Source: a bacterium
GTDB lineage: Bacteria; Bacteroidota; Bacteroidia; Bacteroidales; Bacteroidaceae
Assembly (NCBI GenBank): GCA_004559785.1
Contig: SFXD01000001.1
Span: 1 to 55,831, forward strand
Direction: 5' to 3'
DNA: 55,831 nt
In this document: one piece after another, positions 8,534 through 51,584 of the stretch
Position numbering within the stretch: position 1 is the stretch's first letter
Layout: every line of letters starts with the position of its first letter
The notes under the pieces: generated by a model
Databases searched by the model: none
What the model saw: the letters and a program-made list of their open reading frames with translations, nothing else
Told to the model about the DNA's origin: nothing
Made by a program: the position numbers and the translations under genes

Positions 8534-8558
8534 ATAGGTATGAGTCTTTCCTTGAAAA

Positions 8559-14329: not shown

Positions 14330-14343
14330 TTCCTAATATATCG

Positions 14344-18531: not shown

Positions 18532-18555
18532 ATTGGGTGTTAGATTAGTTTTGCG

Positions 18556-18563
18556 CAAAGATA
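18556..18563 (-). promoter_or_regulatory. -7 box TATCTTTG for the M60 operon
   Basis: caaagata on the plus strand, ~25 nt upstream of the ATG at 18531. It matches the Bacteroidota TAnnTTTG consensus. Confidence 0.5.
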
Positions 18564-35340: not shown

Positions 35341-37506
35341 CTAAACCTGCTCAAGGAGGATGACGCAACTGTCATACTCGCCGTTCAGGTTGATTTCCAC
35401 GCCCTGCTGCATGAGGAACTTGCCCGTCATGGTTGCGCCCTCCCAATGGTCGCGCCGTCCGTTGGCGTTGACCTGATTCAGGCGGTATTTGGCATCAGGG
35501 TTGAGTCCGGCGAAGTAGAAACGGGGACGGGGGAAGTTGACAGCCGTCTCGAACCTGTATGCAAAGAAGACGGCCTTGGTCTTCTGCTCGTTGGCGAACA
35601 GCTGGCTGGCAAATCCCTTGCCTTCGTACGGGGAGATGATGCGGTACTGGTCGCCCAACTGTACCAGAGGGCGTATCGTCTCCTTGTAGAGCTTGAAGGC
35701 TCCCTGTGCAAACTTCATCTCCTCTGCCGAGAGGTCGGATGGCTTCATCTCCATGCCAAGCCTGCCCGACATTGCCACGTCGAACCTGAACTTCAGGGGA
35801 ATGCGGCGTCCCGTCTGATGGTTGGGGCTGGCGCTGACATGCTGTGCCATGGCATTGACGGGGAAGTACATGCTCGTACCCCACTGGATGAAGAGACGCT
35901 GCTTGGCATCGGTATTGTCGCTCACCCAGAATTCGTCGAAGTATGGCATCAGTCCGTAGTTAACACGGCCACCACCACTGGCGCAGCACTGGATGACGAG
36001 GTTGGGGTATTTCTCGCGGACACGCTTGAGCGTCTTGACCAGTCCGAGGTGGAAGTCTACGTAGAGGTGGCTCTGCTTGTCGGCGGTCAGGTAATGCGAG
36101 CCGAAGTTGTTGATCTGGTAGTTGTCATCCCACTTGATGTAGTATGTGTTGGGAGTCTCCTTCATGATATTGTCCACCACGCCGAACACGAAGTCCTGCA
36201 CCTCGGGATTGCTCATGTCGAGGCAGAGCTGCGTGCCTCCACGGCCGGGGCGAGGCTCGCGGGAGGGATGGCACACCACCCAGTCGGGGTGCTTCTCGTA
36301 GAGTTCGCTCTTGGTGTTCGTCATCTCCGGCTCAATCCATATACCCCACTTCAGGCCACGTTCCGTACATGCCTTCTCCAATGCGGGGACTCCGTTAGGC
36401 AACTTGTCACGGTCGGTCACCCAGTCTCCGAGGGCACAGTCATCCACGCTGCGCTTGTACTTGCCGCCAAACCATCCGTCGTCCATTACGAAGAGCTCGG
36501 CACCTACCTCCTTCACTCCGTCCATCATCTTGAACATTCCTTCCTCGGTGATGTTGAGGTATACGCCCTCCCATGAGTTGAGCAAGGTCTTGCGCAGCCC
36601 TGTCCCGTTGTGTACCTTGTCGTTGAGGCGGGCCCAGCGATGGTAGCTGCGGCTCACTCCGCCCATGCCCTCGTCGCTGTAGGCAAGGGCAAGCTCGGGA
36701 GTAGTAAAGCTCTCTCCCTTGGCAAGCGTGTACTGCGAATTGGTGTCGTCTATGCCTGCCAGGAGGTGGTGGACCTTCTTGTCGTTGGTGTCTATGGTAA
36801 TGCGGAAATTGCCGCTCCAGCACAGCACGGCTCCTATGGTGCGGCCGCTGTTCTCCTTGGGCTTGCCGTCGAGCGAGAGCATTATGTTGGGACGGTTCTT
36901 GTAGGCATTCTTGGTACCCGTAACGTCGTGTACCTCGAATATGCCCGGCATGAGCGGCTGCTCGGACACCTCCGCCTCCGCACCCCAGTCTCCATGCTCG
37001 TGGCTTACCCACACGTCACCCTGCCTGACGGGCAGGAAGGCACTGGCATACTTGAGTAGCGTGACCGGCTTCTTCTCGCCGTTGCGTATCACGCTCCAAG
37101 CCTCTATGACGTCAGCATTCTGGTAGGCTCTGTAGCATACGTCCACGTAGAAATCATATAGCTTGTCCTTCATGGTGACGGTATACAGCGTGGAGTTTGC
37201 CTCCTTGACCTCGGTATCGGACTGGTAGACAAGTTCCGTACTCATGTTGCCATCCGCATGGCGCACGGACAGGGCAGGGACGAACGTGTCGCTCGTACCG
37301 AAGGCCGGATATGCCTCGTTCCACAGGCTGAAGGCGCGGTATACCTGCTCTGCGTCGGAGATTCGCTCCCCATAGTAGCTGACGTGTAGCGGCTTGCCTT
37401 CCTCTGCCTTGAGGAGAAGGGTCGTCTGGGGTGTACTCACGAAGATGTCCTTGGCTGGCAACAGTGTAGTCGCAAGCAATGCGATAAGGGTTAGTCTCGT
37501 TCTCAT
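35341..37506 (-). CDS. Alpha-galactosidase, GH36
   Basis: ..FVMDDGWFGGKYKR.., ..KWGIWIEPEMTN.. and ..YYIKWDDNY.. are GH36 catalytic-domain patterns. The ATG at 37506 gives signal peptide MRTRLTLIALLATTLLPA and a 721-aa protein. The 79-codon upstream extension in the track overlaps the neighbouring gene. Confidence 0.85.
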   Translation of the reverse strand: MRTRLTLIALLATTLLPAKDIFVSTPQTTLLLKAEEGKPLHVSYYGERISDAEQVYRAFSLWNEAYPAFGTSDTFVPALSVRHADGNMSTELVYQSDTEVKEANSTLYTVTMKDKLYDFYVDVCYRAYQNADVIEAWSVIRNGEKKPVTLLKYASAFLPVRQGDVWVSHEHGDWGAEAEVSEQPLMPGIFEVHDVTGTKNAYKNRPNIMLSLDGKPKENSGRTIGAVLCWSGNFRITIDTNDKKVHHLLAGIDDTNSQYTLAKGESFTTPELALAYSDEGMGGVSRSYHRWARLNDKVHNGTGLRKTLLNSWEGVYLNITEEGMFKMMDGVKEVGAELFVMDDGWFGGKYKRSVDDCALGDWVTDRDKLPNGVPALEKACTERGLKWGIWIEPEMTNTKSELYEKHPDWVVCHPSREPRPGRGGTQLCLDMSNPEVQDFVFGVVDNIMKETPNTYYIKWDDNYQINNFGSHYLTADKQSHLYVDFHLGLVKTLKRVREKYPNLVIQCCASGGGRVNYGLMPYFDEFWVSDNTDAKQRLFIQWGTSMYFPVNAMAQHVSASPNHQTGRRIPLKFRFDVAMSGRLGMEMKPSDLSAEEMKFAQGAFKLYKETIRPLVQLGDQYRIISPYEGKGFASQLFANEQKTKAVFFAYRFETAVNFPRPRFYFAGLNPDAKYRLNQVNANGRRDHWEGATMTGKFLMQQGVEINLNGEYDSCVILLEQV

Positions 37507-37624
37507 TGTGATTGCTGTTTTGGTTGTTAATAGAATAGTCGTTATAGTGATATATAATATGGACAATTTTCCCCTACACATGTCACAATCTGCCATGCAG
37601 AAATATCGGCAATGGTGCGTTTTT

Positions 37625-40330
37625 CTACTCGTCGAGGTCCACGAAGCCAAGTATGGCACGCGAAAGCCTGACAAGATCCGCCCCGTCCACGGCTCCGTCG
37701 CCATTGAGGTCTGCCACCTCCCTGCCGTCCTTTCCCATGCCAAGGACGATGTCCCTCATCAGCGACAAGTCTTCGTAGTCCACTGCTCCGTCGCCATTGA
37801 GGTCCCCCCTTGTGGCATCGCACACAAGAATCGCACACGAAGTGTTTCCCTGCGCGTGTACCTCGCCGGAGTCGTCCGTAATCCTTACGTTCCTTAGCTC
37901 CAGCGTGTATGTGCCCTGTGGCGTGGCAGGCACGGAGCGGAGGGTGATGACGGCGGTCTCCCCGCTGTTTCCTTCGAATGGGATGCCTTTCCTCTGCCTG
38001 CACGTCAGGCGTATCGCTCCGCTGGAGAGCTTGCCGAAGGATAGCGTGTGGTTGTCCGTGGTGGTTCGCTCGGTGCTGAGTTGGCAGATGGGCTTGCCAT
38101 CGCTATCCAATGCCCATTCAATCCCCTCGGGCAGGACTACGTCGGCCTGCCAGGCGCAGAAGGGCTTCTGGTTGTCTACGCACAGCGACACCCTGCCATT
38201 TGCGCCCCGACGGAACACCGGCGGCTGCGCCGAGAAGGAATAGTCCGGCACGGGATGCTCTACCACGAGGCGAACCCTCACGATGGGACTCCATTCCGTC
38301 CCGCTTCTGCTGATGGCACTTACCATGATGGTGTCCGGCAGGTTGTACCAATCCAGCGACTCCAGTATGTCCGCTCCCGACGAGACATGGACCGCACTGG
38401 GTGTGACGGTTCCCGCAGAGCCCTTCATCCACGAGACGGGATCCGCTCCGTCCGTCGTGTAGTATACGTCGTCGCCCGTAATCCTCAGCTCGCTGCCCAT
38501 GTTGACATGAGATGTGGCATAACCAATCGCCCTGCCGTCGAGGCTGAACTCAGGGGCAGGAGCAGAAGGGAACCATCCCCTATCCTGCAACTGCTTGACG
38601 AAAAGCGATGTCCTGGAGGGGAAATAGCTGTTGAGCAGACGCTTGCGTTCCGACTGATACAGGCCGTCGACGGTATATAGGCTTCCCCTTGAAGAATACG
38701 GATGGACGTCACGGCGATAGTCGCCCCACCTGGCCGATTCGTCGTAGAGAGCCATGGAAATGGTGCCATACAGGCTGTCCCAAAGGCAGATGGCAGACTC
38801 CGGCGTTAGTGCTCCTCCATGGAACAGATGACGCTGGGCTGCCTCGTGGAACCTGTGGGCAAAGAGAGGCTCCTTCATCAGGCGGTTGAGGAAACCCGTG
38901 GGGCACCCGCGGTTGTTCTTGTTGGTAAGGTTGTCCGTCTGGGATATGAAGATTGTCTCCGTGTCCCAGCAGATGAAACGGAACCCCTTGTCGGCTGACA
39001 CGCGATTGCGATAGGCGTACCAGTTATGGTGGTCCCAGTCGGAATTGCCGCCGTAGAGATTGATGAGCATATAGTCGATGAAATTGTCTACGTCGAGCAA
39101 CGGCGGGCAGTCGGGCGATGGTTTCCCCTGGCTGTCAAGCCCTATGAGGCGGAGGTAGTTCTCCCTCTTGTTGGGCAGGGTGTATATAAGGTCTGCCATC
39201 TGGTTCCAGGCTTCGAGGTTGCCATAGTCGGCAATGGCGGCATGATAGTTGCCGGCTCCCCCGTCTACCTCCGTAACATCCCAGTCCGAGGCCTTGCCGC
39301 CAAACTTCTCGGCGCAGAAATCGTCCGTGACACGCTCGCACATGTTGTATAGCCCCCAATACATCCCGTTGATGAAAAGATGGGCATAGCGTGCAAGGCT
39401 GACGGGATGCCCCATCTTGGCTTGGGCGTAACGTGCCCACATGTCGCGGCAGTACTGCGCCTTGCTTCGCTGCGTGTTGTCCCAATGGGTCCACGAATAA
39501 CCGAAGAAGGTGCGGAGAACGAGAGCATTGTGGACAGCCGGACCGCTTTCCCCAAAGACGGGGTAGCGCAACTTGGATGGGCCATAGTCTCCCTTGAAGT
39601 GTAGGCGGAATGCATGCTTGGGATTCTTCTCAGGCAAGCGTCCGTGCCCGCCATGCAGCTTGATGCAGCAGTCTACGGTAAGGTCGTCGTCGGATGGTCC
39701 GCCAAAAAGCTCAAAGCTGACGGGACGTTCCCACCCCCTGCCTATGCCGTCGCCTACGGGACACCCGGTATAGATGTAGATGCCGCCGCGTTCTTCATCC
39801 CTTTCATGGCTGAAAAGATTGTCCTTGTCTGTCACTATGGATATGACCGGCAGGTCATGAAGGCCCTCCAGCATCTTGGGACGCAACTCCGGGTCACGCG
39901 TCAGGTCGGGGTCCATGCCGTAGTCGGCTATCGCCGTCCCCTGTATCTGGCAGTAAGGCCCCCACAATGCGGGATAGCCTGCAGGCTTGTCCGTCTGGTC
40001 AAGGATGCTCTCGGGAAAGAGATAGGATGCTGTAGTGACATTGCTCCAGATGCCGTCTGACAGTAGGGTCGCTGCCCTGACAACGGTGGTGGAACTTACG
40101 GGGAGAGGCTCGTCGAAACGTGTTCCGCAAGTACGGGGGTCACTACCGTCGAGCGTGTAGAACAGTTCTCCCAGCGGCTCGGTGGTTGACACGCTTAGCA
40201 CGAAAGGCTCGTCGTACAAACCATGGGAGTGACTGAAAAAGGGCTCTTGCGCCATTGCCGCAAAAGGCAAGGACGCAAGAGTGAAAACAAAATTATGAAT
40301 TAAAGAATCTATTGCCTTGTTACCAAACAT
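37625..40330 (-). CDS. CotH-family protein: Fn3-associated/CHB_HEX_C-like module, CotH, Fn3-associated-like module, cohesin-like module, dockerin
   Basis: 901 aa with a signal peptide ending ..FAAMA/QE. The N-terminal module is ..LFYTLDGSDP..VVRAAT... CotH core patterns are ..FRLHFKGDYG..LVLRT..YAHLFINGMYWGLYNMCERV..NFIDYMLINLYGGNSDWDHHNWY... The cohesin-like block covers residues ~697-841. The dockerin duplicate is GDLNGDGAVDYEDLSLMRDIVLG...ADLNGDGAVDGADLVRLSRAILG. Confidence 0.75.
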   Translation of the reverse strand: MFGNKAIDSLIHNFVFTLASLPFAAMAQEPFFSHSHGLYDEPFVLSVSTTEPLGELFYTLDGSDPRTCGTRFDEPLPVSSTTVVRAATLLSDGIWSNVTTASYLFPESILDQTDKPAGYPALWGPYCQIQGTAIADYGMDPDLTRDPELRPKMLEGLHDLPVISIVTDKDNLFSHERDEERGGIYIYTGCPVGDGIGRGWERPVSFELFGGPSDDDLTVDCCIKLHGGHGRLPEKNPKHAFRLHFKGDYGPSKLRYPVFGESGPAVHNALVLRTFFGYSWTHWDNTQRSKAQYCRDMWARYAQAKMGHPVSLARYAHLFINGMYWGLYNMCERVTDDFCAEKFGGKASDWDVTEVDGGAGNYHAAIADYGNLEAWNQMADLIYTLPNKRENYLRLIGLDSQGKPSPDCPPLLDVDNFIDYMLINLYGGNSDWDHHNWYAYRNRVSADKGFRFICWDTETIFISQTDNLTNKNNRGCPTGFLNRLMKEPLFAHRFHEAAQRHLFHGGALTPESAICLWDSLYGTISMALYDESARWGDYRRDVHPYSSRGSLYTVDGLYQSERKRLLNSYFPSRTSLFVKQLQDRGWFPSAPAPEFSLDGRAIGYATSHVNMGSELRITGDDVYYTTDGADPVSWMKGSAGTVTPSAVHVSSGADILESLDWYNLPDTIMVSAISRSGTEWSPIVRVRLVVEHPVPDYSFSAQPPVFRRGANGRVSLCVDNQKPFCAWQADVVLPEGIEWALDSDGKPICQLSTERTTTDNHTLSFGKLSSGAIRLTCRQRKGIPFEGNSGETAVITLRSVPATPQGTYTLELRNVRITDDSGEVHAQGNTSCAILVCDATRGDLNGDGAVDYEDLSLMRDIVLGMGKDGREVADLNGDGAVDGADLVRLSRAILGFVDLDE

Positions 40331-42467
40331 CCTCTGGGGTCATTGGGTTGTCGTAAATCTCCTTGGGACACCATTCCATGTAGTCCATGTAGAGTTCCTT
40401 CTTCTCGGAATCGAGTACTGACTTGAACCTTACATAGTAGGTCTCGTTCGGGTCGAGTGTCTCACGGACGAGGATGTGACGTGTCTGGCGGCTGTCGTCA
40501 CGTGCCGTCAGTGACACGTTCGACTCGTGTACCTCGTGGCGCGCAGCCTTCATCAGTCCGTGGTTGCGCAGCTTGTGGTCTACGTCGATTATTCCGTCCT
40601 CGTCCCTGCCGGAATCGTCAAGGTCTGCCCACGTCGCACTCTCTCCGAAGGAATCCACTATTCCCTTGGTCATGTCGATGGGGATACCTGCCGCATGCAG
40701 GCGGTCGGGGTCGTTGCCGAAATAGATCTGTACTATGCCACGAGCTCCGGTGGCAAGCGTCTTGTAGCGGAGTTCGTACGTACCGCGCTTCGGGACGGGT
40801 GGCAGCGTGAACATGATGTCGAAGCGTCCGATAGCCTTCATCTCGTCCTGCGTATAGTTTGCCCAGTTGATTCTATAGCCATTGAAATAGATGAAATTGG
40901 TCTCATCACTCAGTATGCTCATGTTGTCGAAATACTGGTAAACCTTGTTGGCAGGTATGTAGACGTGCTGGTACTTGTCTTCCTGCGAGTCGGCGCGGCG
41001 GATGCCATTGGTGATGGCCTCGGGGAAGAGAGCCATGCCGTCGAAGCGGATTCTCTCCTTGCCCAGGTTGTCGCGGGTCGCATTGTCGTATGCCAACGGA
41101 GCGTCAATGGGATAGATGCAGGCATTCTCGATGTCCGTGACGTTTGCAAGTTCGTCCTCCCTCATCACGAGGCAACCAACCTTGTCCACGTCACAAGAGA
41201 GCTCATGACCGGTTCCGTATATGCCATTGTCGAGGTTGGGGAAACGGTTGAGGTAGACTCCCTCGCTTTCCTTTGATTCGAAGAGCTTCAGCAGACGGCG
41301 CTTGCCCATGGTGGGATACCATTCGAAGACGGGTATTGAGTAACGCGTTGGGGTGGTGATGCTATAGCCTACCTCGTTGCAATGATAGACGAGCTTGTTG
41401 GCAGGTATGCGCATGGGCAGGATGTGGTATGTTGCCCATTGGTAGAGTATATGGTTTTCCGAAGAGAAATTGTCGTCGGTGAGGAAAGTCTCTTCAGTCA
41501 GGTATTTCTGGTTGTCGATTATCCATTGTGTCACCTTCTCTGGCACGTCGGATGCAAGAGGGTCGATACCCTGGCTGCGCCAGAAATCATCCTTCTCCGC
41601 AAAGAGGGTGAACCCGTACTTGCGGTGCTCGGGGGAAATGGCGTCAGAATTGCTGTTGCCGCTCTTGTCAGAGAATCCCTTGGACATGTAGTCCTCGAAG
41701 TCCTCTATCTCTCCGTTCTGGTATTTCATTTCGTATACCTCGTCCCGGATGAGCGATAGTTCCTTGATGAGGTCGCAAGCCTGAAGGCACTTGAAGAAAA
41801 CGAGCAGTCCCTCTTCCCTCTTGTCAAGTATCTCCTGGATGTAAATCGTGCAATTGATGTCCTTGGGTGCTATTACCTTGTGGACCTGGTGTATCACACC
41901 GTTGATGAGGGGAATATCCCTGTTCTTTCCGTCAATGGCGCACTCTCCATTGATGTAGAGACTGTCTGGCATGTTGTTGGGCCATGTTATCGTCAGTTTG
42001 TGATCGTTGATGTTGGGCAGCGGAAGTTCGGAGTTCTGCTCCGTAGGCAACATGGCGAGCGTATACCGCTGCGATTCGAGGTCTCCTCCGTCGATGATGG
42101 AATTCTTGACGATTACCTGACGGATGGAGTCAGCCTTGTGCTCGGATGGGAAGCCTTCCCAAGTAGGTTCAGTGATAAGCCCTTCCTCTACAAGCTGCCC
42201 GAAATACGTCTTTATTGCATCGTTGGTGGGGGCAAAGCAGGTGTAATTCCCCCTTGCGGTCAACAGCTGGTATACTGTCGACTTGCTACGAGGACTCATT
42301 GGCACGACCTTGGTCATTTCCAAGTATTCTGAGTAACATGGCTGCGACTCAAGGTAACTCGCTACGGTATGGTCTACGAACACGTAGCGTGCAGAGGTAT
42401 CTATCTCCTCCTTGCATGACACCAAAGCCATTGATAAGGCGATGAACGATAGGAAAAACTTTCTCAT
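40320..42467 (-). CDS. Fasciclin (FAS1) domain lipoprotein with a large uncharacterised C-terminal region
   Basis: 715 aa with lipobox ..MALVSC/KE. The FAS1 signature is ..LLTARGNYTCFAPTNDAI... Its stop overlaps the downstream CotH start by 11 nt. Confidence 0.65.
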   Translation of the reverse strand: MRKFFLSFIALSMALVSCKEEIDTSARYVFVDHTVASYLESQPCYSEYLEMTKVVPMSPRSKSTVYQLLTARGNYTCFAPTNDAIKTYFGQLVEEGLITEPTWEGFPSEHKADSIRQVIVKNSIIDGGDLESQRYTLAMLPTEQNSELPLPNINDHKLTITWPNNMPDSLYINGECAIDGKNRDIPLINGVIHQVHKVIAPKDINCTIYIQEILDKREEGLLVFFKCLQACDLIKELSLIRDEVYEMKYQNGEIEDFEDYMSKGFSDKSGNSNSDAISPEHRKYGFTLFAEKDDFWRSQGIDPLASDVPEKVTQWIIDNQKYLTEETFLTDDNFSSENHILYQWATYHILPMRIPANKLVYHCNEVGYSITTPTRYSIPVFEWYPTMGKRRLLKLFESKESEGVYLNRFPNLDNGIYGTGHELSCDVDKVGCLVMREDELANVTDIENACIYPIDAPLAYDNATRDNLGKERIRFDGMALFPEAITNGIRRADSQEDKYQHVYIPANKVYQYFDNMSILSDETNFIYFNGYRINWANYTQDEMKAIGRFDIMFTLPPVPKRGTYELRYKTLATGARGIVQIYFGNDPDRLHAAGIPIDMTKGIVDSFGESATWADLDDSGRDEDGIIDVDHKLRNHGLMKAARHEVHESNVSLTARDDSRQTRHILVRETLDPNETYYVRFKSVLDSEKKELYMDYMEWCPKEIYDNPMTPEDVW

Positions 42468-42595
42468 TTCTTCTTGGGTTGGTTAATTCTTGCTGTTACT
42501 TTTCAATATGTTCCCCCGACTCCGAGAGCCAGCGGCATCCGAAGTCGGGAGAACTATAGGATTTGGATTGTTTACATTATTTCAACGTAGGTTCC

Positions 42596-45500
42596 TTACT
42601 TTACGAGATACTTCTTGCCATTGATGATGAAGATGCCCTTGCCAGCCTTGCCTACACGCTGTCCGGAGAGGCTGTAGATAGCCTGACCTGCATCGTCGGA
42701 TGCTGTCTCTATGGCATTTACGCCGTCAACCAGATCGTCGTCGTTGCACTCGTCGGCCGTGATTACGATGACGTTGCGTATGCAGATGGTCTCGTAGCTC
42801 TCGTTGTTGCCGAACAAATCCCAGCGGATTACATTGTCTGAACCTCCGAAGTTCCATGTCTCCACAGCCTTCGTTATGTCAACGTAGGCTTGCTTCCATT
42901 CGCTGGTTGCTGGCATTGCAGCAGGTGCGAGCTGGTAATTTGGATTGATGGAAGGCGTACCGAAGTAGAGAACGCCGTTGTTGGCATCCTTCTCTGTCTT
43001 GTACTCGTAAGCAAGGATTATGCGGTCGCTGGTGAGGTTGTCGTAGAAGCCCTTGAACGTTACGTTCGGACGCATGCCGTTACCTGTCAGCTCGTACTCG
43101 AAGTCGGCTGTCTCACTTGCTGTGACATTGGTCTGCTTCTCCATGTCAACGTAGAGGTAGTCGGGATAGAGTTCGTAGAGGGCGTCGATGGCAGCGAGTG
43201 CCTGCTCGCCAGTCTCGTACTCTCCTGCATCGAGCTTGTCGCAAACAGCATAGATGTCGGCATCAAGGGTCCCATGATTCATGGAGTGATTTATCCACTT
43301 GTCGTATACCTTGTTCTTTGCAATGTATAGTTGGTTGTACGCCTTCTGGCAATCCAGCACGTTCTGGAAGAGTGCACCGTCGGTAACCAGGTCATTGTAG
43401 GTAGTCTGACCGGATATGGCGGCAAGTGCCTCCTTAGTTGCGGCAGCAAAGTTAGGAGCCTCGCTGAAGCTGATGTCGTATGCCAACTCTGGAACGTAAG
43501 AGTTGCAGAGAGTGTTGGCGCGCTTTGAGTTGTAAGCGACTGCCTCTGCTATGGCATTAGCAGCATCATCCTCTGTCTCACCAAGGTAAGCAAGACGGAA
43601 GTTACCAGCCACTGTCCAGCTGTTGCGGTTGATGGTTCCCTCGCTCTTCAGACCGAAGGTGAGAGTGCCGTCGGTTACCTTAGCAACCATAGGAATCTCA
43701 TAACGACCTGCTGCAAATGCATAAGAAGAACCGATAGTACCCCATACCACGTAACCGAGAGTATCGGTTTCATCCTCGGGATTGATAACTGGTCTGTCGG
43801 GATGAGTGTCGCCTAACCATGCGTCTGCAGGATTTACAGCCATATCCTCGATGACCGTCTGAACGAACGTAGCAGCATCGTTGGCATAGGCGATAGGTGC
43901 GTACGTGTAGGATGAAGACGTAACGGTATCCTTTTCCTGACGGAAGGCTGCATTGAGCCTGAGCTGGTAGTAACCGTCCTTCAGACCTGTGAGAGTCTGG
44001 TTGATGTCGAACAAATCCTGAGTCTCGCAGAACTCGGCTGCATAAATCTTGCCGTCCTCGTTGGTTCCGCTCTTGTAGAGCAGTCCGTCCCATCCTTCTG
44101 CCTTCGTACCGCCTTCAACGCTCTCAGTCTTGGCGAATGTGCGGTTGACGATGAGCGAGCTGATATCCGTACCAGCCACGTAGCCCAAGCGTACGGCAGC
44201 AAGCTTGAGGCTCTCAAGATAGTCAACCTCAGCCAATACTGCGCTGTCAGCCAGTTCGTGGTTCTCTACGATATAAGGAGCAGAACCGTTGGGGAAGCCA
44301 TCCTCAGAGGGCTCTACGGTTGCGGTAAGGTAAGACTGGAGGTTTGCAAGTGCGTCGGATTCTGTCAGCTTGTTGGCTTCCAGATATTCCTTCACACCGT
44401 CTACGGCTGCCATATACTGTCCGTAAACCTTCTCGCTTGCGAGTATCTTCTGCTGCAGCTGCTCTATCTCGTAGTTGGTGCGGAAGAGAACCTCCATGTT
44501 GACGCACTCGCCGACTTCAGCGATCAAGCCTTCGTAGGCATCAATCAGAGCCTGGGTGCAAGTCACGTTGTATCCGAACTCCTCTGCCTTGGCAATGTAG
44601 TCGTTCTTGATTTCGTCGAACTCTTCCTCGGTACCGAAGCGGAGTTCCTGCATCTGGATTGCACTGCCGGAATATGCCTCGTATACCACAACCTTATAAT
44701 ATGTATAGGGAACGGTTGTCTCGGAACTGAAGCCGAAGTATGAAGCCGTCAGGTTGGCAGGATTCAGACGCTCCTGGCCTACGTTGACCTTCTCGTCTAC
44801 AAGTACCCATCCCTCGGAATCCTTGGTGGCAAGTCCGTCACCCTCGAAGTTGGCTCCATAGATGCTCCACCTCTTCCAGTTACGACCCTGATAGTCATAG
44901 GTGTCTGCACCGGTGGTGAGGGTATAGAAGAATGGATTTACGGCCTCCAGCGTACGGAAGATGACGTAAGTATCGCCCACGCTGCTGCACTCGCCACCCC
45001 ACTTGGTCTCGAGGCTGTTGTCCACGATTTGCTTGTAGTGTCCGTCGCCCCACTGGCTGTTGGTGTGGCCATCGAGCACGATATAGCTATCCTCGTAGAG
45101 GGCACTCATGTACATATTGATTCGTACGGTCTCCTTCTCCAGTTCCTCGTCGGAAATGGTGCGGTTGGTGACGATGTACTCGTATGTTCCGTTAATGTAT
45201 GCTGCAGAAGGGCCTTCGTTCTGCTCCGCATAGCCCGTAGCCCAGGCATAAACCTGCTCGTAGTCTGCGAAGTCTCCGGGAGAGAAGAGATCCATTGCCT
45301 CTACGTACTCCATCCACTTGGCATTGGAGGATGCAATCTTGGTGATGAGTTCCTTCAAGGTGTTCTTTGCTGCTATGAGCGAAGGAGCATCTGCGGCATT
45401 TGACATCTTCTCGTAGGTGCTGACATACTGCTCGTAAAGAGAGATGTTGCAGAGTGTGTTCTCGTCTATAGCATCAAGTCCGGCATCCATAATGGACTGC

Positions 45501-47542
45501 TCCAGTTCGATGACAAACTCTTCGCGCTGCTCGTTGAGGTTACCCTGGTTGTAGAATGTCAGCTCGTTCATCTGCTGCTTGTCGCCGCCGGAGTTGATTA
45601 CCTCGACCTTGAAGTACTGGTACTCCTCGGTTGGAGGATTATTGAGATTGATGAAGTTCTCGTAAACGTTCTCTGCCTTGAGGATTTCTGTACCTACGTT
45701 TGTCCTCTTGTCTATCAGTACCCAACCCTCGGCATCCTTTTCGGCTGCCTCGTCGCTATCGAAGTTACCGGCATAGATGTTCCAATCCTTCCAGTTACGG
45801 CTCGGGTTGCTCTTGGTGTCACCACCCGTTACCAGTCCGTAGTAAGAAGGCTTGATGGGATCAGAGCTCTTGAATACTATGAACCAAGGCTTGGGTCCCT
45901 GATTTTCTCCAGAACCAGAGCACCACTTTGTACCTGTCTTGTCACCATCTATGAGCGAGCCATGGCTCTCTGCATCGCTGAAGCCTCCGCTACCAGACAG
46001 AGCCTCGTAAGTAGCATAGATGGGGTCAATCTGTACGGCGTAGTTATTGTTGACAAAAACGAGCAACCGGTTTGTCTCTTCGGAAACCTCCTCTGTAGTC
46101 AACTGCCTGTTGGCCTTGACGTACGCAAGGTTACCTACGGGGAATCCATCGCCTGGAGCGATTGCCTCCTCTCCGGCATATTTCTTCAGATACTCCGTAG
46201 CGGCAGAGTTGAGCAGTCCGTCGTTGACAGCATTCAAGGCTATTGCAACCTGCGTCACATAGTCGTCGTATGCCTTTACGTTTGCAGCATACAGTGTCTT
46301 CTGATTATCGAGATTCTTCAACAGGGGGTTGAGCGCAGTGGCGGATGTCTGAGTCTTGATAGACTCAACCAACGCCTGACTTTCTTCAACCATTGCCTTT
46401 GATGCGAATGCGGTGAAGTCGAACTTGCCCACCCACGCATTGTAGGTGTCATCGAGCTGGAGCTTAAACGTTGCGTCGTCACCGAGTGCGAACTCCGTCA
46501 TCTGCATGTAGCCGCTGGTTCCGCTCATGATCTGGCTGATCTCTACCTTGAAGTAACGGTACTTCTTGGTGTTCTCCTCAGAGAGTTCCATGAATACCTC
46601 GAAACTGTTGAGGTCGGGCAGAACTTCTTCGGTAACGTCAACCTTGTTGTCCAATAGCTGCCAGCCCTCATGGTCGCGGGTAATCTCTGATTCGGGCACA
46701 TCGGCAATGCCATAAATCTTCCAGTCCTTCCAGTTGCGATGGTTCCATGCTGCGTTGTCTGTACCTGTCACAAGCTTGTAGTAGGTGGGGCAGATGGAAC
46801 GTGAAGTCTTGACAATGAAGTAAGGCTTGCCGTCTATGCCATTACCCCACTTTGTATTGTAGTTGTTATCGAAGAGAGACTTCAAACCCTCTCCGTCATT
46901 GTTGTTACGTGTTCCAGCGAGGATGCTGTATTTTATCGGCTCATCCAAGGGAGATTCACCACTTGTATATGCGTTGAAATCGTCTGCCGTTCCCAGTCCG
47001 AACTCGTCCATCTGGAGCCATACATCAGTGCCCTGAACAGACTCGGAGATACGGATGTAGTAATAAAGGTACTCTGTAGTGCCGTCGGCCTTGTTAAACT
47101 TGAAGTCTACCACCTGTGCGTTGGCTGCAGGGAGTGGCTCGTCGACACGCTGGTCGATGAGTGTCCAGTCGGCATCCACCGTTGCCTCCTCGTCGGATGC
47201 GAAGTTTGCAGCGTAGATGTTCCATGTCTTCCAGTTGCGACCCGGATTGTTGCCCGTGTCATTTCCCGTTACGAGGAAATAGTTGGTGGGTACTACTGCC
47301 TTCTTGGCCTTCATGATAATCCAGGCCTCGGACCTTTCGGGGTTGTTTGGGTCGAAGGAATGTCCCATCTTGGTGAACTTGTCTCCGTCCACCAATTTGG
47401 CATAACCCTCACCACCTGTTCCACCAGTTCCTGATAATGCTGTCAGCCTTACGTATTCTGCCGACGCATTCTGGGCTGAGAGCAGCATCATTGCAGATGC
47501 CAGCGCCAGCCTTACCTTGTGAAGAAATGTAGTTCTCTTCAT
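42596..47542 (-). CDS. 1648-aa T9SS cargo with four discoidin (F5/8 type C)-like modules separated by helical linkers
   Basis: It has a signal peptide. The repeated module ends in NWKTWNIYAANF, NWKDWKIYGIAD, NWKDWNIYAGNF and NWKRWSIYGANF, each preceded by DGD/DN..TKW(G/C).. and followed by ..YYKVxV..MxExxFG. The C-terminus ..AIYSLSGQRVGKAGKGIFIINGKKYLVK is T9SS CTD-like. Confidence 0.7.
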   Translation of the reverse strand: MKRTTFLHKVRLALASAMMLLSAQNASAEYVRLTALSGTGGTGGEGYAKLVDGDKFTKMGHSFDPNNPERSEAWIIMKAKKAVVPTNYFLVTGNDTGNNPGRNWKTWNIYAANFASDEEATVDADWTLIDQRVDEPLPAANAQVVDFKFNKADGTTEYLYYYIRISESVQGTDVWLQMDEFGLGTADDFNAYTSGESPLDEPIKYSILAGTRNNNDGEGLKSLFDNNYNTKWGNGIDGKPYFIVKTSRSICPTYYKLVTGTDNAAWNHRNWKDWKIYGIADVPESEITRDHEGWQLLDNKVDVTEEVLPDLNSFEVFMELSEENTKKYRYFKVEISQIMSGTSGYMQMTEFALGDDATFKLQLDDTYNAWVGKFDFTAFASKAMVEESQALVESIKTQTSATALNPLLKNLDNQKTLYAANVKAYDDYVTQVAIALNAVNDGLLNSAATEYLKKYAGEEAIAPGDGFPVGNLAYVKANRQLTTEEVSEETNRLLVFVNNNYAVQIDPIYATYEALSGSGGFSDAESHGSLIDGDKTGTKWCSGSGENQGPKPWFIVFKSSDPIKPSYYGLVTGGDTKSNPSRNWKDWNIYAGNFDSDEAAEKDAEGWVLIDKRTNVGTEILKAENVYENFINLNNPPTEEYQYFKVEVINSGGDKQQMNELTFYNQGNLNEQREEFVIELEQSIMDAGLDAIDENTLCNISLYEQYVSTYEKMSNAADAPSLIAAKNTLKELITKIASSNAKWMEYVEAMDLFSPGDFADYEQVYAWATGYAEQNEGPSAAYINGTYEYIVTNRTISDEELEKETVRINMYMSALYEDSYIVLDGHTNSQWGDGHYKQIVDNSLETKWGGECSSVGDTYVIFRTLEAVNPFFYTLTTGADTYDYQGRNWKRWSIYGANFEGDGLATKDSEGWVLVDEKVNVGQERLNPANLTASYFGFSSETTVPYTYYKVVVYEAYSGSAIQMQELRFGTEEEFDEIKNDYIAKAEEFGYNVTCTQALIDAYEGLIAEVGECVNMEVLFRTNYEIEQLQQKILASEKVYGQYMAAVDGVKEYLEANKLTESDALANLQSYLTATVEPSEDGFPNGSAPYIVENHELADSAVLAEVDYLESLKLAAVRLGYVAGTDISSLIVNRTFAKTESVEGGTKAEGWDGLLYKSGTNEDGKIYAAEFCETQDLFDINQTLTGLKDGYYQLRLNAAFRQEKDTVTSSSYTYAPIAYANDAATFVQTVIEDMAVNPADAWLGDTHPDRPVINPEDETDTLGYVVWGTIGSSYAFAAGRYEIPMVAKVTDGTLTFGLKSEGTINRNSWTVAGNFRLAYLGETEDDAANAIAEAVAYNSKRANTLCNSYVPELAYDISFSEAPNFAAATKEALAAISGQTTYNDLVTDGALFQNVLDCQKAYNQLYIAKNKVYDKWINHSMNHGTLDADIYAVCDKLDAGEYETGEQALAAIDALYELYPDYLYVDMEKQTNVTASETADFEYELTGNGMRPNVTFKGFYDNLTSDRIILAYEYKTEKDANNGVLYFGTPSINPNYQLAPAAMPATSEWKQAYVDITKAVETWNFGGSDNVIRWDLFGNNESYETICIRNVIVITADECNDDDLVDGVNAIETASDDAGQAIYSLSGQRVGKAGKGIFIINGKKYLVK

Positions 47543-47667
47543 TGAATTTGGGTTTTTAGTGTTAATAATTAATATAGTTAAATCAAATGCTCTGTTTCAG
47601 GACAGAATTATTACTTCCAACCTTTGTTTTTTTGACCAGAATCCTTTGTTTTGGGCTTTATCCGATG

Positions 47668-47675
47668 CAAATATA
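47668..47675 (-). promoter_or_regulatory. -7 box TATATTTG upstream of the 1648-aa gene (internal promoter candidate)
   Basis: caaatata on the plus strand, ~125 nt upstream of the ATG at 47542. Confidence 0.35.
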
Positions 47676-47773
47676 TCTAATTTGTCACAATTTTAAACAT
47701 ATTTGGACTGTTTCTTTATCCGCCTTAACATCTTTTAACGGCACTTGGTATTACGAGGGGGATATCGTCACCG

Positions 47774-50700
47774 TTATTGCCCCTCAAGGAGAATCAATCC
47801 CACGAGTCCTGCAATGTCTGCCTCTCCGATAATCCCATCTCCGTCAATGTCTGCGGCACGCTTGTCACAAGCTAAGGACGAAGTGCCGCGCACCACATTG
47901 ACAAGAGTCACGAGGTCGAGTCCGTCAACCTCTCCGTCGGCATTCACGTCACCCAGCAAATACGAAGGCTTGACTACGCCAACCACACATGTCCCCATGG
48001 CACTACCCCACCCCGGGGCACTTACCTGGACTGAAGCCTGTCCCTCGGCTACTGCCTTTATAAGCCCCCATTGGTCAACACGGACCACGCCGGGGTCTGT
48101 AGACTTCCAGAAGAGTCCTGCATCCGACATGTAGTCGGGCTTCACCACCGCCTCAAGACGGAGGGTATCGCCCTCCTCGAGTGTACACTCTCCGTGGGAC
48201 AGCACAATGTCCGTTACCTCGCCCACGGGTGAGGAAAGACTGTAGTCGTACGGGGTGAAGTTCTCTGTCCCTATCTCGGTAATGTCCTTGCGGATGTCTA
48301 TCTCCACCCACGACGGGTCGTCCGGGTCGCTGGTACTCACATTGGAGGCACACAGTGTCCAGGTCGAGGGGTTGCGATCGGAGTATTGTCGAGAATCGTT
48401 GGCACTGTATATCCTGTAGCCACTGACGGGAATCGCCTTGCCTGCGTCGAAGAAGAAACAGGCGTTGCCGTTGAACTTGCCAGAACAATACTTGGTGCCT
48501 GTGTCGTTGTCAGCCAGGTTCCCCCAGTTCTCGCTACCGATGTTGCTCTCTGTTCCTGCATATATTGAAAGGTCCTCCACCTCGCCTCCTGCATTGTCGA
48601 GCAGGTCAAACTCCGAGAACTGGATTGTCCCGCTATTGCCATCGCGTATGCGCGTTATACATAATTTATAATATCGGTAGCCATTTACTCCATTGCGAGG
48701 CGTGTTGGTATATCCCGTTGACGTGCGATAGACCTGTGCGCTCGAAGGCGAAGGTGTGGGGTAAGGGTCGTGGGCGAGTCCGTTGTCGAGGTTCTGCCTC
48801 CAGTAGGAATAGCCAGCCTCTGCATTGAGGATGAAGCACAGCTCGCCCGACGCTACCTGCAAGGGTGTAATACTCCGTGCCTTCGACGGCATTATGTCGT
48901 GGCAGTTGGCAAGGGACAAGTCCTTAGTGGTCGAGGCAAAGCAATCGCCGTCGCCGCCCGTTGATACGATGGCGGCATTGTAGCAGTTGGCAAGGCTTAT
49001 CTTGCCTGCCGACGGTCCAACTAAAGAGGCTCCGTTTTCTGCAGCCTTCACGGCACCTACGTTGTAGCAGTTGCTGATGTTCAGCGTGGCAAGCAGGCGG
49101 CTCATGCCTACAAGTCCTGCTGCATAGGTGCCCGATGCCGTTACGGTAGCTGCAGAGCTGCAGCCCTGTATGTTGATGATACCGTTGCGCACCTGACCTA
49201 TGAACGCCGACACGTAGTTGCTGCCGCTGAAACTGCACGATGCGGCAATATTTACGTCACGCAGCGACATTCCTGCACCCACTATGCCGAAGAGACCCAC
49301 GTAGTTGGAGCCTTCAACACGGAGGTTACTTATTGTGTGCCCCTGCCCGTCGAACTGTCCGCAATATGGCTTGGTAGGATTACCTATAGGCTTGAAGCGA
49401 TCGGAGTATGCCTCCATGTCTACGTCGGCGCATAGCACCGCCGAGGCAGAGGTGTTGCCATTGGCAACGAGTTCGGAGAATAGGCAGAGGTCGCGCGGAG
49501 TGCCAATCTGATATATGCCGCCCTCTTCCGTCAGGGCATCATAGCCCAGTTTCTTGTCCATCCATGCCACGCGGTCGCGCACGTAGTTGCGCACGACGTC
49601 CACCTCTGCCTCCCAGCTTCCCCTGATGGCAGGCGTGAGGCTAATGTATTGGTTGAGGTAGGGCCAGCGTATGAAATTGAGGTTGGCAGAGGCACGCATC
49701 TCGTTCCGCAGCGAGTCTACCCCTCCTGCCACGTCAAGGCTGTTGAAAGCCCCCTCGTCGCGCAGCCTTGCCCAGAGCTGCCTCAGTTGCGCCATGGCAT
49801 TGGGGTCTGACAGGATGCGAGAGACGAATGTTCCCCAGCGTCCTGTCTCGCGAACAAGATAGGTCCAGTCCTCGCGGCTGTTGCCTGGGTAGACGGTAGC
49901 GTCGTCGTCCAGTGCCAGCTCATGATCCCATACAGGGCCTGTGTAGAAGTGGTCGTCTCCCCTATCCTTGTACATGAACACCTGGCATATCATGTCTGTA
50001 TTGCCGTTGAACTCGCTTATGAGGAAGTACTTTAGGAAAGACTCCAGGTCGAGCACCGAGCGGAATCCCTTGTCCGTATCGGTATAGTCATCCCCGAATA
50101 CTATGTCCTCCATCTCGTTGAAGGCTGTCTTGATGTACGCAAACTGTTCGGGTTGCATTATGTCGTCATCAGGGTCGTGGACGCTGATTGGGTTTCCATG
50201 GCGTGTGGTGAAGTTGTATGGTTCGCGCCCGGCATTGTTGTCCACCTCTACGAAATAGCCTCCCGTCAGAGCCTCGCCCTCTATGTCCTCCTCGTACATT
50301 TCTGTTATATCTATACGTCCCGAGTGTACAGTCACCTGGTCGGCTATGGTGTACGTGCCGCGGTAGTCTCCGTTGAGGATAAGGTCTACTGGCTGGTTCC
50401 ATGGCGTAAACTTAGGTCCAACCCTCTTCGACACCTGCCATGCTACGGGATTGCGCATCAGGGTCTTGTCGCGGTAACTGTTGAGCAGCACCCATTTCTT
50501 CGCTTTCACGGGAGACTCGTTTGTGGTAGAACCTTTCATGATGTGGTGGCTCTTGCCGTCGTTGAACTTCACCCTGTATGGCTTGTTGGGAGGGGTAGCC
50601 GAGAAATTGCCCCTCACCCTGGTCAATATCGGGTACTCCTGTATCATGGTGCCGTCCTCGTGGATGAGGGTGTAGTGTGACTCGAAGTCCTCGCCTCGCA

Positions 50701-51298
50701 CCGTAGGTACGGCTCCGTCTGCCACATGGATGCTGAGTGTAGGAAGGTTGGTGACCTGATAGAACCTGCTGTCGTCGCCCTCGCCCTCATGGCCGAAGAA
50801 CTGCAGTTCGGCAACGTTGCAGTATGACCCTGCTCCACCTACGTAGCGTACATAGCGGAACCCACGGCTAACGTTGATATCTACGGTGGTGGACTTGCCC
50901 GCCGTAGGAGCCTCTGAGATTAGGTATAGAGGTACGGCGTCCATGAAGGTAGAATCGTTGGCTCCCTCAAACAAGGAAAGCAACATACGGTCGGGGCCTA
51001 CCGACAACGGGGCAGGAGTGTAGGAAATACGGGTCACCACATGCCGGGCTCCAAGGTCGAGTCCCACCCACTGCATGTCTGCTGCCGTGGTCCTGTAGTA
51101 TGTGGCGGCATCTGCGTCGAAAGCATTCTCTGCCATGGTTGCCGTGCCAGAGGACAGTATCTTGCCTGTAAGTTCTACATCCGTCGTTTCGTCGAATGCC
51201 ATGGCAGAGCTGTATGCCATTGGACATAGGATGGCAAGTAGCATGGCACGTAGGATTGGCTTGATGCGCCGTGAGCAGTATTTGTTAGTTCTATTCAT
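47774..51298 (-). CDS. CotH-family protein: F5/8C, CotH, GLUG repeats, discoidin-like module, Big_2-like module, dockerin
   Basis: 1174 aa with a signal peptide. The CotH core is ..KAKKWVLLNSYRDKTLMRN..LILNGDYRGTYTIADQV..FLKYFLISEFNGNTDM..VFMYKDRGD..GPVWDHELA... The GLUG block is ..CGQFDGQGHTISNL..VGLFG..AAGLVG..NCYNVGAV... A second discoidin-like module is ..NDTGTKYCSG..NPSTWTLCASN... The Big_2-like block is ..TLRLEAVVKPD..WKSTDPGVVRVDQWGLIKAVAEGQASV... The dockerin is GDVNADGEVDGLDLVTLVNVV...ADIDGDGIIGEADIAGLVGLIL. Confidence 0.75.
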   Translation of the reverse strand: MNRTNKYCSRRIKPILRAMLLAILCPMAYSSAMAFDETTDVELTGKILSSGTATMAENAFDADAATYYRTTAADMQWVGLDLGARHVVTRISYTPAPLSVGPDRMLLSLFEGANDSTFMDAVPLYLISEAPTAGKSTTVDINVSRGFRYVRYVGGAGSYCNVAELQFFGHEGEGDDSRFYQVTNLPTLSIHVADGAVPTVRGEDFESHYTLIHEDGTMIQEYPILTRVRGNFSATPPNKPYRVKFNDGKSHHIMKGSTTNESPVKAKKWVLLNSYRDKTLMRNPVAWQVSKRVGPKFTPWNQPVDLILNGDYRGTYTIADQVTVHSGRIDITEMYEEDIEGEALTGGYFVEVDNNAGREPYNFTTRHGNPISVHDPDDDIMQPEQFAYIKTAFNEMEDIVFGDDYTDTDKGFRSVLDLESFLKYFLISEFNGNTDMICQVFMYKDRGDDHFYTGPVWDHELALDDDATVYPGNSREDWTYLVRETGRWGTFVSRILSDPNAMAQLRQLWARLRDEGAFNSLDVAGGVDSLRNEMRASANLNFIRWPYLNQYISLTPAIRGSWEAEVDVVRNYVRDRVAWMDKKLGYDALTEEGGIYQIGTPRDLCLFSELVANGNTSASAVLCADVDMEAYSDRFKPIGNPTKPYCGQFDGQGHTISNLRVEGSNYVGLFGIVGAGMSLRDVNIAASCSFSGSNYVSAFIGQVRNGIINIQGCSSAATVTASGTYAAGLVGMSRLLATLNISNCYNVGAVKAAENGASLVGPSAGKISLANCYNAAIVSTGGDGDCFASTTKDLSLANCHDIMPSKARSITPLQVASGELCFILNAEAGYSYWRQNLDNGLAHDPYPTPSPSSAQVYRTSTGYTNTPRNGVNGYRYYKLCITRIRDGNSGTIQFSEFDLLDNAGGEVEDLSIYAGTESNIGSENWGNLADNDTGTKYCSGKFNGNACFFFDAGKAIPVSGYRIYSANDSRQYSDRNPSTWTLCASNVSTSDPDDPSWVEIDIRKDITEIGTENFTPYDYSLSSPVGEVTDIVLSHGECTLEEGDTLRLEAVVKPDYMSDAGLFWKSTDPGVVRVDQWGLIKAVAEGQASVQVSAPGWGSAMGTCVVGVVKPSYLLGDVNADGEVDGLDLVTLVNVVRGTSSLACDKRAADIDGDGIIGEADIAGLVGLILLEGQ

Positions 51299-51330: not shown

Positions 51331-51338
51331 CAAAAATA
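51331..51338 (-). promoter_or_regulatory. -7 box TATTTTTG for the CotH cluster
   Basis: caaaaata on the plus strand, ~33 nt upstream of the ATG at 51298. Confidence 0.5.
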
Positions 51339-51468: not shown

Positions 51469-51513
51469 AAAAATTGTGTCCTGCTCCTCGCTATGTACGA
51501 GTCTGCAGGACAC
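51469..51513 (-). terminator. Intrinsic terminator for rpoD
   Basis: A 9-bp stem GTGTCCTGC (51476-51484) / GCAGGACAC (51505-51513) has an inner ctcg/cgag pairing. On the minus strand it is followed by AATTTTTCCC. Confidence 0.6.
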
Positions 51514-51584
51514 AACCAAATCAAAACTTTTATGAAACTGTCTTTTTCCTGTCCTTGCCTTACACGCCCCTTGTCAAATATCCC

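Follow-up and report, generated by a model that had tools for sequence, protein, structure and literature searches.

A conserved CotH, discoidin-like, and FAS1 lipoprotein gene trio with interchangeable dockerin and short type IX secretion-type tails in gut and rumen Bacteroidota

In this work, we analyzed the entire 55.8-kb contig SFXD01000001.1 (55,831 nucleotides; hereafter the window) of an uncultured "Bacteroidaceae bacterium" metagenome-assembled genome (MAG; GCA_004559785.1), in which four consecutive open reading frames (ORFs), termed A, B, C, and D, lie on the minus strand. Gene A (47774..51298) encodes a CotH protein of 1174 amino acids (aa), B (42596..47542) a protein of 1648 aa, C (40320..42467) a FAS1 lipoprotein of 715 aa, and D (37625..40330) a second CotH protein of 901 aa. 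According to sequence and Pfam, rpoD (51585-52445) lies upstream of A, and genes for a GH36 and a GH33 glycoside hydrolase lie downstream of D. In public annotation, the cluster proteins have only generic names ("fasciclin domain-containing protein" or "CotH kinase family protein"). A preliminary description of the window had placed the four genes at exactly these coordinates and had proposed that they form one functional unit. Judged by gene order in related genomes, the conserved unit is A-B-C, often together with GH36, and D appears to be an accessory, lineage-specific insertion outside this trio. We place at about even probability the reading that the trio forms a module for binding galactose-containing glycans at the cell surface and includes a CotH-type phosphotransferase.

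Homologs of C are abundant (2268), and a scan of the GTDB species representatives with a C profile found at least 570 loci, 80 of which were retrieved. Nearly all of these come from uncultured Prevotellaceae, Bacteroidaceae, or Bacteroidales of rumen, hindgut, or human gut; one (L010) is labeled Opitutae, which is probably a binning or labeling error. The complete collinear A-B-C trio is present in 33 of the 80 loci, all from other species-level genomes, and B is still next to C in eight further loci that are cut by contig ends. Across the trio loci, C is the most conserved member (54-79% identity; A orthologs, 49-61%), and the B orthologs recovered from the retrieved loci (37-59%) always have four discoidin-like (DL) modules in 1650-1760 aa. 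The flanks of the trio vary: rpoD lies upstream only in the closest relative (L008), and RNase R, 2-Hacid_dh, PriA with gldLMN, or an esterase was found elsewhere. No homolog of D occurs in any of the 80 loci, L008 included. Because the trio is collinear in 33 genomes with differing flanks and D is missing throughout, the conserved unit is drawn as A-B-C without D. GH36 follows C in 10 loci, directly in nine of them, and GH33 was not found as a neighbor of the trio in any locus. The slot between C and GH36 is variable, because in L008 (12343-13365) a 340-aa lipoprotein, GH43-like by eye, occupies the position that D has in the window. The functional unit and the neighborhood conservation envisaged earlier were thus recovered for A-B-C, with GH36 in part of the loci, and not for D or GH33. 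Since large multidomain proteins that are secreted abound in the genomes of Bacteroidota, it might be supposed that unrelated secreted proteins are adjacent here by chance and form no functional unit, and D and GH33 do look like incidental neighbors. The retention of the A-B-C order in 33 other species-level genomes with different flanks refutes this explanation for the trio, and A and B moreover have a specific module family in common. We therefore regard chance adjacency as very improbable for the cluster, although it is the default for D and GH33.

Among 34 trios, the tail of A and that of B is in each case a type I dockerin or a short type IX secretion system (T9SS) C-terminal domain (CTD); all four combinations were observed: dockerins on both proteins (14 trios), CTD on A with dockerin on B (eight trios), CTDs on both (10 trios), and dockerin on A with CTD on B (two trios, the window and L008). 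The same swap is found in the D family, whose members mostly have a short CTD and in a few cases a dockerin; only the window type has a cohesin plus a dockerin. As the swap is seen in three families (A, B, and D), the two tail types behave as equivalent modules. The dockerins of A (aa 1113-1166; 47801..47962, minus strand) and D (aa 840-895; 37646..37813, minus strand) scored 32.1 and 34.9 bits, respectively, with Dockerin_1 (PF00404; cutoff 22.9), and both also match dockerins in the PDB. Calcium-binding repeats of the form D-x-N/D-x-D-G...D can be read from the sequence in both proteins, and the two repeats of A are intact (DVNADGEVDGLD and DIDGDGIIGEAD). Signal peptides were found on A, B, and D.

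The tail of B (aa 1610-1648; AIETASDDAGQAIYSLSGQRVGKAGKGIFIINGKKYLVK; 42599..42715, minus strand) was assigned by motif comparison. The T9SS type A CTD models TIGR04183 and PF18962 have no match in B or in nine orthologous tails, such that the earlier designation of B as a T9SS cargo holds for its four DL modules and for a putative short Prevotella-type tail and fails for these models. A class of short CTDs has been characterized experimentally in Prevotella intermedia; these CTDs are ~40-55 aa long and have a cleavage motif with Ile at +2, a motif B (Y..G plus a basic residue), a gap of 1-6 aa, a motif D (GxY/N-I), and a basic motif E (PMC11969387). Compared by eye rather than with the authors' hidden Markov model (HMM), the tail of B fits this class as N↓AIE...AIYSLSGQRV-GKAGK-GIFIINGKKYLVK (the arrow marks cleavage), with F replacing Y in motif D and a length of 39-42 aa at the lower edge of the class range. 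The orthologous cleavage motifs YPT↓AIG and WPT↓GIN are near the published PT/GI consensus (PMC11969387). Like the tail of B, many tails of A, B, and D orthologs agree with the P. intermedia cargo in length class, in the Ile at +2 of the cleavage motif, and in motifs B, D, and E. The portions of that study drawn on here make no mention of dockerins as alternative tails or of CotH cargo (PMC11969387). No T9SS genes were found in the window. In three trio loci from rumen MAGs (L004, 16984-20716; L006 and L007, 14673-21076), the T9SS core genes gldL, gldM, gldN, and porP lie a few kb from the trio, with PriA, and in L004 GH36 as well, in between.

Protein D consists of Fn3_assoc, a CotH domain (Asp431 and Asp456), an Ig-like domain, a cohesin, and a dockerin. 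Fn3_assoc, CotH (E 1e-23), and Dockerin_1 were all confirmed by Pfam, as the preliminary description had proposed. The cohesin-like assignment fared differently, as the region (aa 702-840; 37811..38227, minus strand) has no direct match to Pfam cohesin PF00963 even at E 10, and support came from transitive homology and structure prediction. A word-indexed homolog search with this region returned one fragment; an exhaustive search was needed to find 1829 relatives, several of which have PF00963 over the matching stretch. With phmmer, the region matches five proteins that all have Pfam Cohesin (P0242, P0244, P0246, P0251, and P0254; E 1e-30 to 1e-54), and the two assignments overlap in P0246 and P0251. 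The AF2 model has a predicted local distance difference test (pLDDT) score of 84.8, and its five top Foldseek matches are the cohesins 2jh2, 5n5p, and 6kgc (TM 0.77-0.80), 2vo8, and 4dh2, with target-normalized TM scores of 0.64-0.80 and root-mean-square deviations of 2.8-4.7 Å across the five. The model thus agrees with the nine-stranded jelly-roll fold of cohesins. On this homology and model, aa 702-840 of D is a genuine cohesin. Ordinary D-family proteins are ~730 aa long, and the family gave 2997 matches. In L088 (8001-10193) and L089 (1441-10193), the D-type CotH genes are of this ordinary kind (~730 aa, short CTD) and lie in a conserved context of their own, with an ~960-aa protein upstream (no confident Pfam match), a SpoU methylase downstream, and an APH/choline-kinase-like gene nearby. 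L089 also has a C-type FAS1 lipoprotein (703 aa) ~4.4 kb upstream of its D-type CotH gene, which is a second FAS1-CotH association.

The presence of this cohesin bears on the proposal that the four gene products form a non-covalent complex, in which the dockerin of A would bind the cohesin of D and the dockerin of D would bind another anchor. Protein D has both a genuine cohesin and a dockerin, A has a dockerin, and the arrangement of a dockerin on A with a CTD on B is also found in L008. The start of D overlaps the stop of C by 11 nt, and a direct motif search found no Bacteroidota-type -7 box in the B-C or D-GH36 spacers; for these two reasons, D is probably co-transcribed in the window genome. 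However, D is absent from all 80 related loci, and its slot in L008 is taken by an unrelated 340-aa lipoprotein; 10 trios have no dockerin at all, cohesin-dockerin specificity is not predictable from sequence, and the dockerin of D has no partner in the window. We give a four-gene complex a low probability. The earlier form of the proposal, which inferred a non-covalent assembly from dockerins combined with two anchoring routes, does not describe a conserved feature, given that 10 of the 34 trios have CTDs on both A and B and that the sole cohesin of the window is in D.

Cohesins that could receive dockerin-tailed proteins were searched with a cohesin HMM. No cohesin was found within 10 kb in any of the 33 trio loci, and no multi-cohesin scaffoldin encoded with dockerin proteins was found in the window or the 80 loci. 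Among the 149 closest relatives of the D cohesin (P0242-P0390; each with at least two cohesin copies), at least 56 end in a Prevotella-type short CTD, and P0244 combines six Pfam cohesins with Por_Secre_tail and Flg_new repeats. These T9SS-tailed multi-cohesin proteins exist elsewhere and could not be linked to the trio genomes. From their sequences, they look like a class of T9SS-displayed cohesins, and they are plausible receptors for dockerin-tailed cargo because 56 of the 149 relatives end in the short CTD. A broader reading, possible though rather doubtful in our judgment, is that Prevotellaceae of gut and rumen run a Gram-negative cohesin-dockerin display layered on the T9SS. Short CTDs would export and anchor the cohesin proteins, and the cargo (the CotH proteins A and D and the giant lectin-like B) would carry either a CTD or a dockerin for non-covalent capture. 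Because dockerin-tailed cargo has a Sec signal only, such a display would need an undescribed route across the outer membrane, for example piggy-back with T9SS cargo that bears cohesins or an export machinery that recognizes the dockerin directly, and the CotH domains flanked by carbohydrate-binding modules (CBMs) would be extracellular phosphotransferases acting on glycans or surface proteins.

Family membership of the two CotH domains is clear from PF08757 (138.6 bits for A and 84.7 bits for D; cutoff 23.8), and a CotH profile of A, D, and their orthologs matches Bacillus cereus CotH (5jd9; E 4.9e-10; query 69-405, chain 55-355). The catalytic residues were taken from B. subtilis CotH, in which the D228Q and D251A mutants are dead (PMC7821199), and were mapped through 5jd9. 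The corresponding 5jd9 residues D224 and D247 align with D435 and D458 of A and with D431 and D456 of D, within GN(T/S)D and WD motifs. In A, the domain spans aa 227-580 (49559..50620, minus strand; Pfam E 4e-40), with Asp435 (GNTD) as the catalytic and Asp458 (WD) as the metal-binding residue. Both Asp residues are invariant in 32 of 32 alignable A orthologs and in 120 of 120 D-family proteins. The CotH domains of A and D are therefore unlikely to be purely structural, which was a possibility that the preliminary description had left for the catalytic residues to settle.

By analogy with the Bacillus cotB-cotH-cotG genes, the trio might instead serve coat assembly, in which the kinase of A would phosphorylate B and/or C to pattern a surface layer or fibril, and the lectin-like modules would act in self-assembly or bind the cell's own surface polysaccharide. 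The B. subtilis CotH gene lies beside those for the substrates of the enzyme, and the coat is patterned through the kinase activity of CotH (PMC7821199). Bacillus CotH resembles A and D in fold family and in both Asp residues and is likewise a kinase encoded beside large structural proteins. The trio ties its putative kinase, with invariant catalytic residues, tightly to two large structural-looking proteins, B has the regular module-spacer repeat typical of fibrous surface proteins, and the C-type FAS1 lipoprotein near the D-type CotH gene of L089 also fits. However, Bacillus CotH is a single-domain protein of ~360 aa that works inside the mother cell with ATP, whereas A and D are secreted multidomain proteins of 900-1200 aa, and neither the periplasm nor the cell surface offers a source of ATP. 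The Bacillus substrates have Ser-rich repeats, of which there are none in the window cluster, and neither B nor C has Ser/Lys/Arg-rich or Ser/Thr-rich repeats. Furthermore, the CBM62-like module of A and the GH36 linkage point to external galactosides, and many C paralogs have no CotH neighbor. Coat assembly is thus an unlikely explanation.

The CotH domains of A and D might also phosphorylate carbohydrate, with the flanking CBM-like modules delivering the glycan. Models for such an activity exist in the secretory pathway, where Fam20B is a xylose kinase and POMK a mannose kinase. Carbohydrate-active enzymes typically show the order CBM-catalytic domain-CBM, the nearby genes encode no repeats that resemble those of protein substrates, and D carries Fn3_assoc/CHB_HEX_C modules, which occur on glycosidases. 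Nevertheless, the CotH activities reported in the literature drawn on here are all on proteins, no sequence feature compared here tells glycan kinases and protein kinases apart, and the problem of extracellular ATP applies equally. A glycan kinase is an improbable identity for these domains on present evidence.

The reading that the trio binds external galactose-containing glycans draws on the accessory modules of all three proteins. Protein A has a signal peptide, a CBM62-like F5/8C module, the CotH domain, a GLUG-like region, a DL module, Big_2, and the type I dockerin. Of these, F5/8C (aa 55-165), CotH, Big_2, and Dockerin_1 were found above threshold by Pfam. The first module (aa 55-176; 50771..51136, minus strand) is of the galactose-binding type and is a clear homolog of CBM62 from Clostridium thermocellum Xyl5A (phmmer to 2yb7 and 5g56; E 2e-23), which targets D-galactose in side chains (PMC5063996). 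The GLUG-like repeat domain (aa 591-870; 48689..49528, minus strand) was identified by a profile match to 3n6z, a 'putative IgA1 protease' (E 4.7e-14). Pfam Glug (PF07581) has no match in A and is marginal in three of 10 orthologs (E 0.03); hence, the domain order proposed earlier was recovered except for GLUG, which is supported by the 3n6z homology and not by its own HMM. The DL module (aa 866-1025; 48224..48703, minus strand) is common to A and B, as had been noted before, and this was confirmed by BLAST cross-matches (E 3e-8 to 7e-12) and by a DL HMM. There are one to three DL copies in the A orthologs. In A, the segment GYRYYKL...IQFSEFDLL aligns with the C-terminal strands of the B modules and yet precedes the rest of the module, which suggests, from the sequence order, a circular permutation or a shifted domain boundary.

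In B, the signal peptide is followed by DL1 (aa 29-189), DL2 (201-359), a spacer (374-510), DL3 (510-668), a spacer (693-814), DL4 (819-975), a spacer (991-1111), beta-domain 1 (1115-1335), beta-domain 2 (1455-1606), and the short T9SS-type tail. Exactly four DL modules were found by HMM, together with three copies of the ~135-aa spacer. The DL modules are below threshold in Pfam (DUF5000, 19.5 bits with a cutoff of 25; F5_F8_type_C, E 0.14), and the DL profile matches an accessory domain of the GH92 enzyme 7nsn (residues 96-222; E 5e-11), which we take to be a CBM32. Beta-domain 1 matches the accessory region of the GH53 galactanase 9fli (E 8e-6).

Protein C was described from the outset as a FAS1 lipoprotein, and this agrees with its LVSC lipobox, which is followed by acidic residues (KEEID), and with a Fasciclin (PF02469) match above threshold (26.3 bits; cutoff 22) that is also present in many orthologs. 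FAS1 (aa 64-201) is followed by an alpha/beta middle region and a C-terminal CBM-like beta-jelly-roll. The AF2 model of C has a pLDDT of 74.5, with a poorly modeled FAS1 region, and Foldseek matched the predicted jelly-roll to CBM6/27/32/35-like folds. We considered whether C could be a cohesin-bearing anchor for dockerin-tailed A and B and rejected this, as the matches listed for C are CBM-like jelly-rolls with no cohesin among them and the cohesin HMM is silent on both C and B. As a predicted surface lipoprotein with a CBM-like C-terminal domain that is encoded beside a glycoside hydrolase, C resembles the surface glycan-binding proteins of Bacteroidota polysaccharide utilization loci. Unlike those proteins, C has FAS1 and is partnered by a kinase-like enzyme and by a protein with a T9SS or dockerin tail, and the trio has neither a SusC/SusD pair nor a hybrid two-component/ECF regulator linked to it. 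A polysaccharide utilization locus was rejected as an explanation because of the missing SusC/SusD pair.

The C family extends beyond the trio. C-type FAS1 lipoproteins of a second clade (~52% identity; L050, L052, and L055-L087) are found without A or B and with varied neighbors, and several MAGs have two to three C-family copies, some ~18 kb apart on one contig (L051 and L060 of RGIG9433). Near one C paralog, L087 (14009-17581, minus strand) encodes an A-like CotH protein (1190 aa, 45% identity) that has a short CTD and, at aa 932-1045, a cohesin-like domain, the only other cohesin found in the 80 loci. Directly upstream of another, L059 (5553-9923) encodes a 1456-aa protein that is weakly like A and B (~30-33%) and on which the CotH and DL HMMs are silent; this protein may be a divergent partner.

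Taken together, the galactose-glycan theme is proposed because A has a CBM62 homolog, B matches 9fli, C has CBM-like folds, and GH36 follows C in 10 loci. The core would be a three-gene cell-surface module of gut and rumen Prevotellaceae-like Bacteroidota. Protein A would be a secreted CotH-family phosphotransferase with its CBM62-like module at the N-terminus and its DL (discoidin/CBM32-like) modules toward the C-terminus. Protein B would be a multivalent binding protein, with four DL modules set apart by the repeated spacer and followed by two beta-domains, and C a lipoprotein exposed at the surface that combines a FAS1 adhesion domain with a C-terminal CBM-like jelly-roll. With short CTDs, A and B would be exported by the T9SS and attached covalently to surface polysaccharide; with dockerins, they would be captured non-covalently by cohesin modules, for which the T9SS-tailed cohesin proteins common in this lineage and encoded elsewhere would be the partners. 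At the cell surface, the three proteins would then together bind galactose-containing glycans of plant cell wall or host, GH36, a periplasmic or secreted alpha-galactosidase that is frequently adjacent, would process the released products, and the CotH domain would phosphorylate a substrate. In the window genome, D, with a cohesin and a dockerin in place of the usual T9SS tail, would have been inserted between C and GH36 and could serve as an adaptor for dockerin-tailed A. Nothing supports the host-modifying role suggested previously, and the binding modules point to galactose-containing glycans of either plant or host.

Several observations weigh against this proposal. The related genomes are all uncultured MAGs, and GH36 is adjacent in only about a quarter of the trios. 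The possible link of B to galactan is a single match (E 8e-6), and the fold matches of C are weak (E 2e-4 to 1e-2; query-normalized TM ~0.14). The short CTD is assigned by motif comparison where the standard HMMs fail. As a potential receptor, the cohesin HMM found only the D cohesin in the window and none in B or C, and we know of no outer-membrane route for dockerin-tailed proteins of Bacteroidota that have only a Sec signal. Substrate repeats of the Bacillus type (Ser/Thr-rich, as in CotB and CotG) were not found in A-D, and ATP is scarce outside the cell, a problem that is shared with cellulosomal CotH. No SusC/SusD pair was found among the large ORFs of the window or in the annotated neighborhoods L002-L007; without this pair or another transporter linked to the trio, a role in nutrient capture is not anchored.

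Secreted proteins that combine CotH, a type I dockerin, and accessory modules, as in A, have precedents in cellulosomes, for example in C. thermocellum (CseP/Cthe_0044 and Cthe_0239), Ruminococcus flavefaciens, and Neocallimastigomycota. Dockerin-bearing CotH proteins are cellulosome components with a role that is 'not clear yet' according to a 2025 review (PMC12484212, PMC6083626). The CotH-dockerin architecture is less unprecedented than the preliminary description implied, because it is known from these Firmicutes and fungal cellulosomes, whose hosts are plant-fiber-degrading gut organisms. Unlike those hosts, the bacteria here are Gram-negative, T9SS-bearing Bacteroidota in which the dockerin is interchangeable with a T9SS CTD, and the CotH protein is part of a trio with a giant protein of four DL modules and a FAS1 lipoprotein, with no linked cellulases or multi-cohesin scaffoldin. 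In fold, the cohesin model of D is closest to the cohesins of the Clostridium perfringens GH84C/GH33 enzymes (2jh2, 2vo8, and 2w1n). Non-cellulosomal cohesin-dockerin systems, including the 'mucinolysomes' of Limousia (PMC12997984), share a glycan-degrading setting with the window, which encodes GH33, GH36, an M60-like peptidase, and nagB as host-glycan enzymes. These systems join glycoside hydrolases in Gram-positive bacteria, whereas the cohesin and dockerins here are on CotH and adhesin-like proteins, and Pfam found no dockerin on the GH33 or GH36 of the window. In the searchable literature, we found no assigned role for CotH in Bacteroidota, in agreement with the preliminary description, and no account of the CotH/four-DL/FAS1 lipoprotein trio, of an interchange between dockerin and short CTD, or of a class of T9SS-tailed cohesins.

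As for transcription signals, a scan for sigma-70-type promoters and terminators is uninformative for Bacteroidota, so the -7 motif TAnnTTTG was searched directly. There are 31 copies in the whole window against 15.2 expected, a count reached by none of 100 shuffles, and several copies lie just 5' of gene starts (rpoD, A, and B). One box (TATTTTTG; 51331..51338, minus strand) lies 33 nt upstream of the ATG of A and another (TATATTTG; 47668..47675, minus strand) 126 nt upstream of that of B. The box proposed earlier in front of A was therefore found, and because a second box precedes B, the four genes are not behind a single one. A terminator-like hairpin after rpoD (51469..51514, minus strand) was read from the sequence, in agreement with the preliminary description; it has a 10-bp stem (TGTGTCCTGC/GCAGGACACA) and a 20-nt loop and is followed by ATTTTT, and it was missed by the consensus terminator scan, which has a loop limit of 8 nt. 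Pfam likewise confirmed both downstream hydrolases. The longest ORF of GH36 (35341-37743, minus strand) begins at a TTG at 37743 and overlaps the 3' end of D; judged by the L008 alignment and the signal peptide, translation truly begins at the ATG at 37506, which gives a 721-aa protein (35341..37506, minus strand; Pfam Melibiase, E 1e-104).

The rest of the contig encodes further surface and host-directed functions. An Mfa-type fimbrial cluster (2046-9179, minus strand) consists of two Fimbrillin_C proteins, an Mfa2-like anchor, and DUF3868 and DUF3575 proteins. An M60-like (enhancin-type) peptidase of 1404 aa, which includes a ricin-B lectin domain, is followed by a DUF6057 protein (12719-18558, minus strand), nagB lies nearby (10093-10932), and efflux genes are also on the contig. 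The M60-like peptidase, nagB, and GH33 together point to a capacity for host-mucin foraging. At the contig end (54281-55732, minus strand), a 483-aa protein has Rep3_N (initiator WH1; E 9e-8) and a weak DnaA_N match and adjoins an M48/BlaR1-like peptidase gene (53261-54241); it may initiate replication of a plasmid-like or integrated element.

Prevotellaceae are the dominant bacteria of the rumen and of many human guts, and much of their surface proteome has no assigned function. With the C relatives being so numerous, often in several copies per genome, the trio is widespread and under clear constraint, and it offers a genetically compact system for studying the role of secreted dockerin-bearing CotH "kinases" and their phosphate donor. 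The tail swap in three families and the many T9SS-tailed cohesin proteins suggest that Bacteroidota have cohesin-dockerin display and type IX secretion integrated with each other. If true, this would change the sequence-based prediction of surface-protein sorting in Bacteroidota, and it would explain the many "orphan" Prevotella dockerins that have been noted in rumen metagenomes (PMC6487960).

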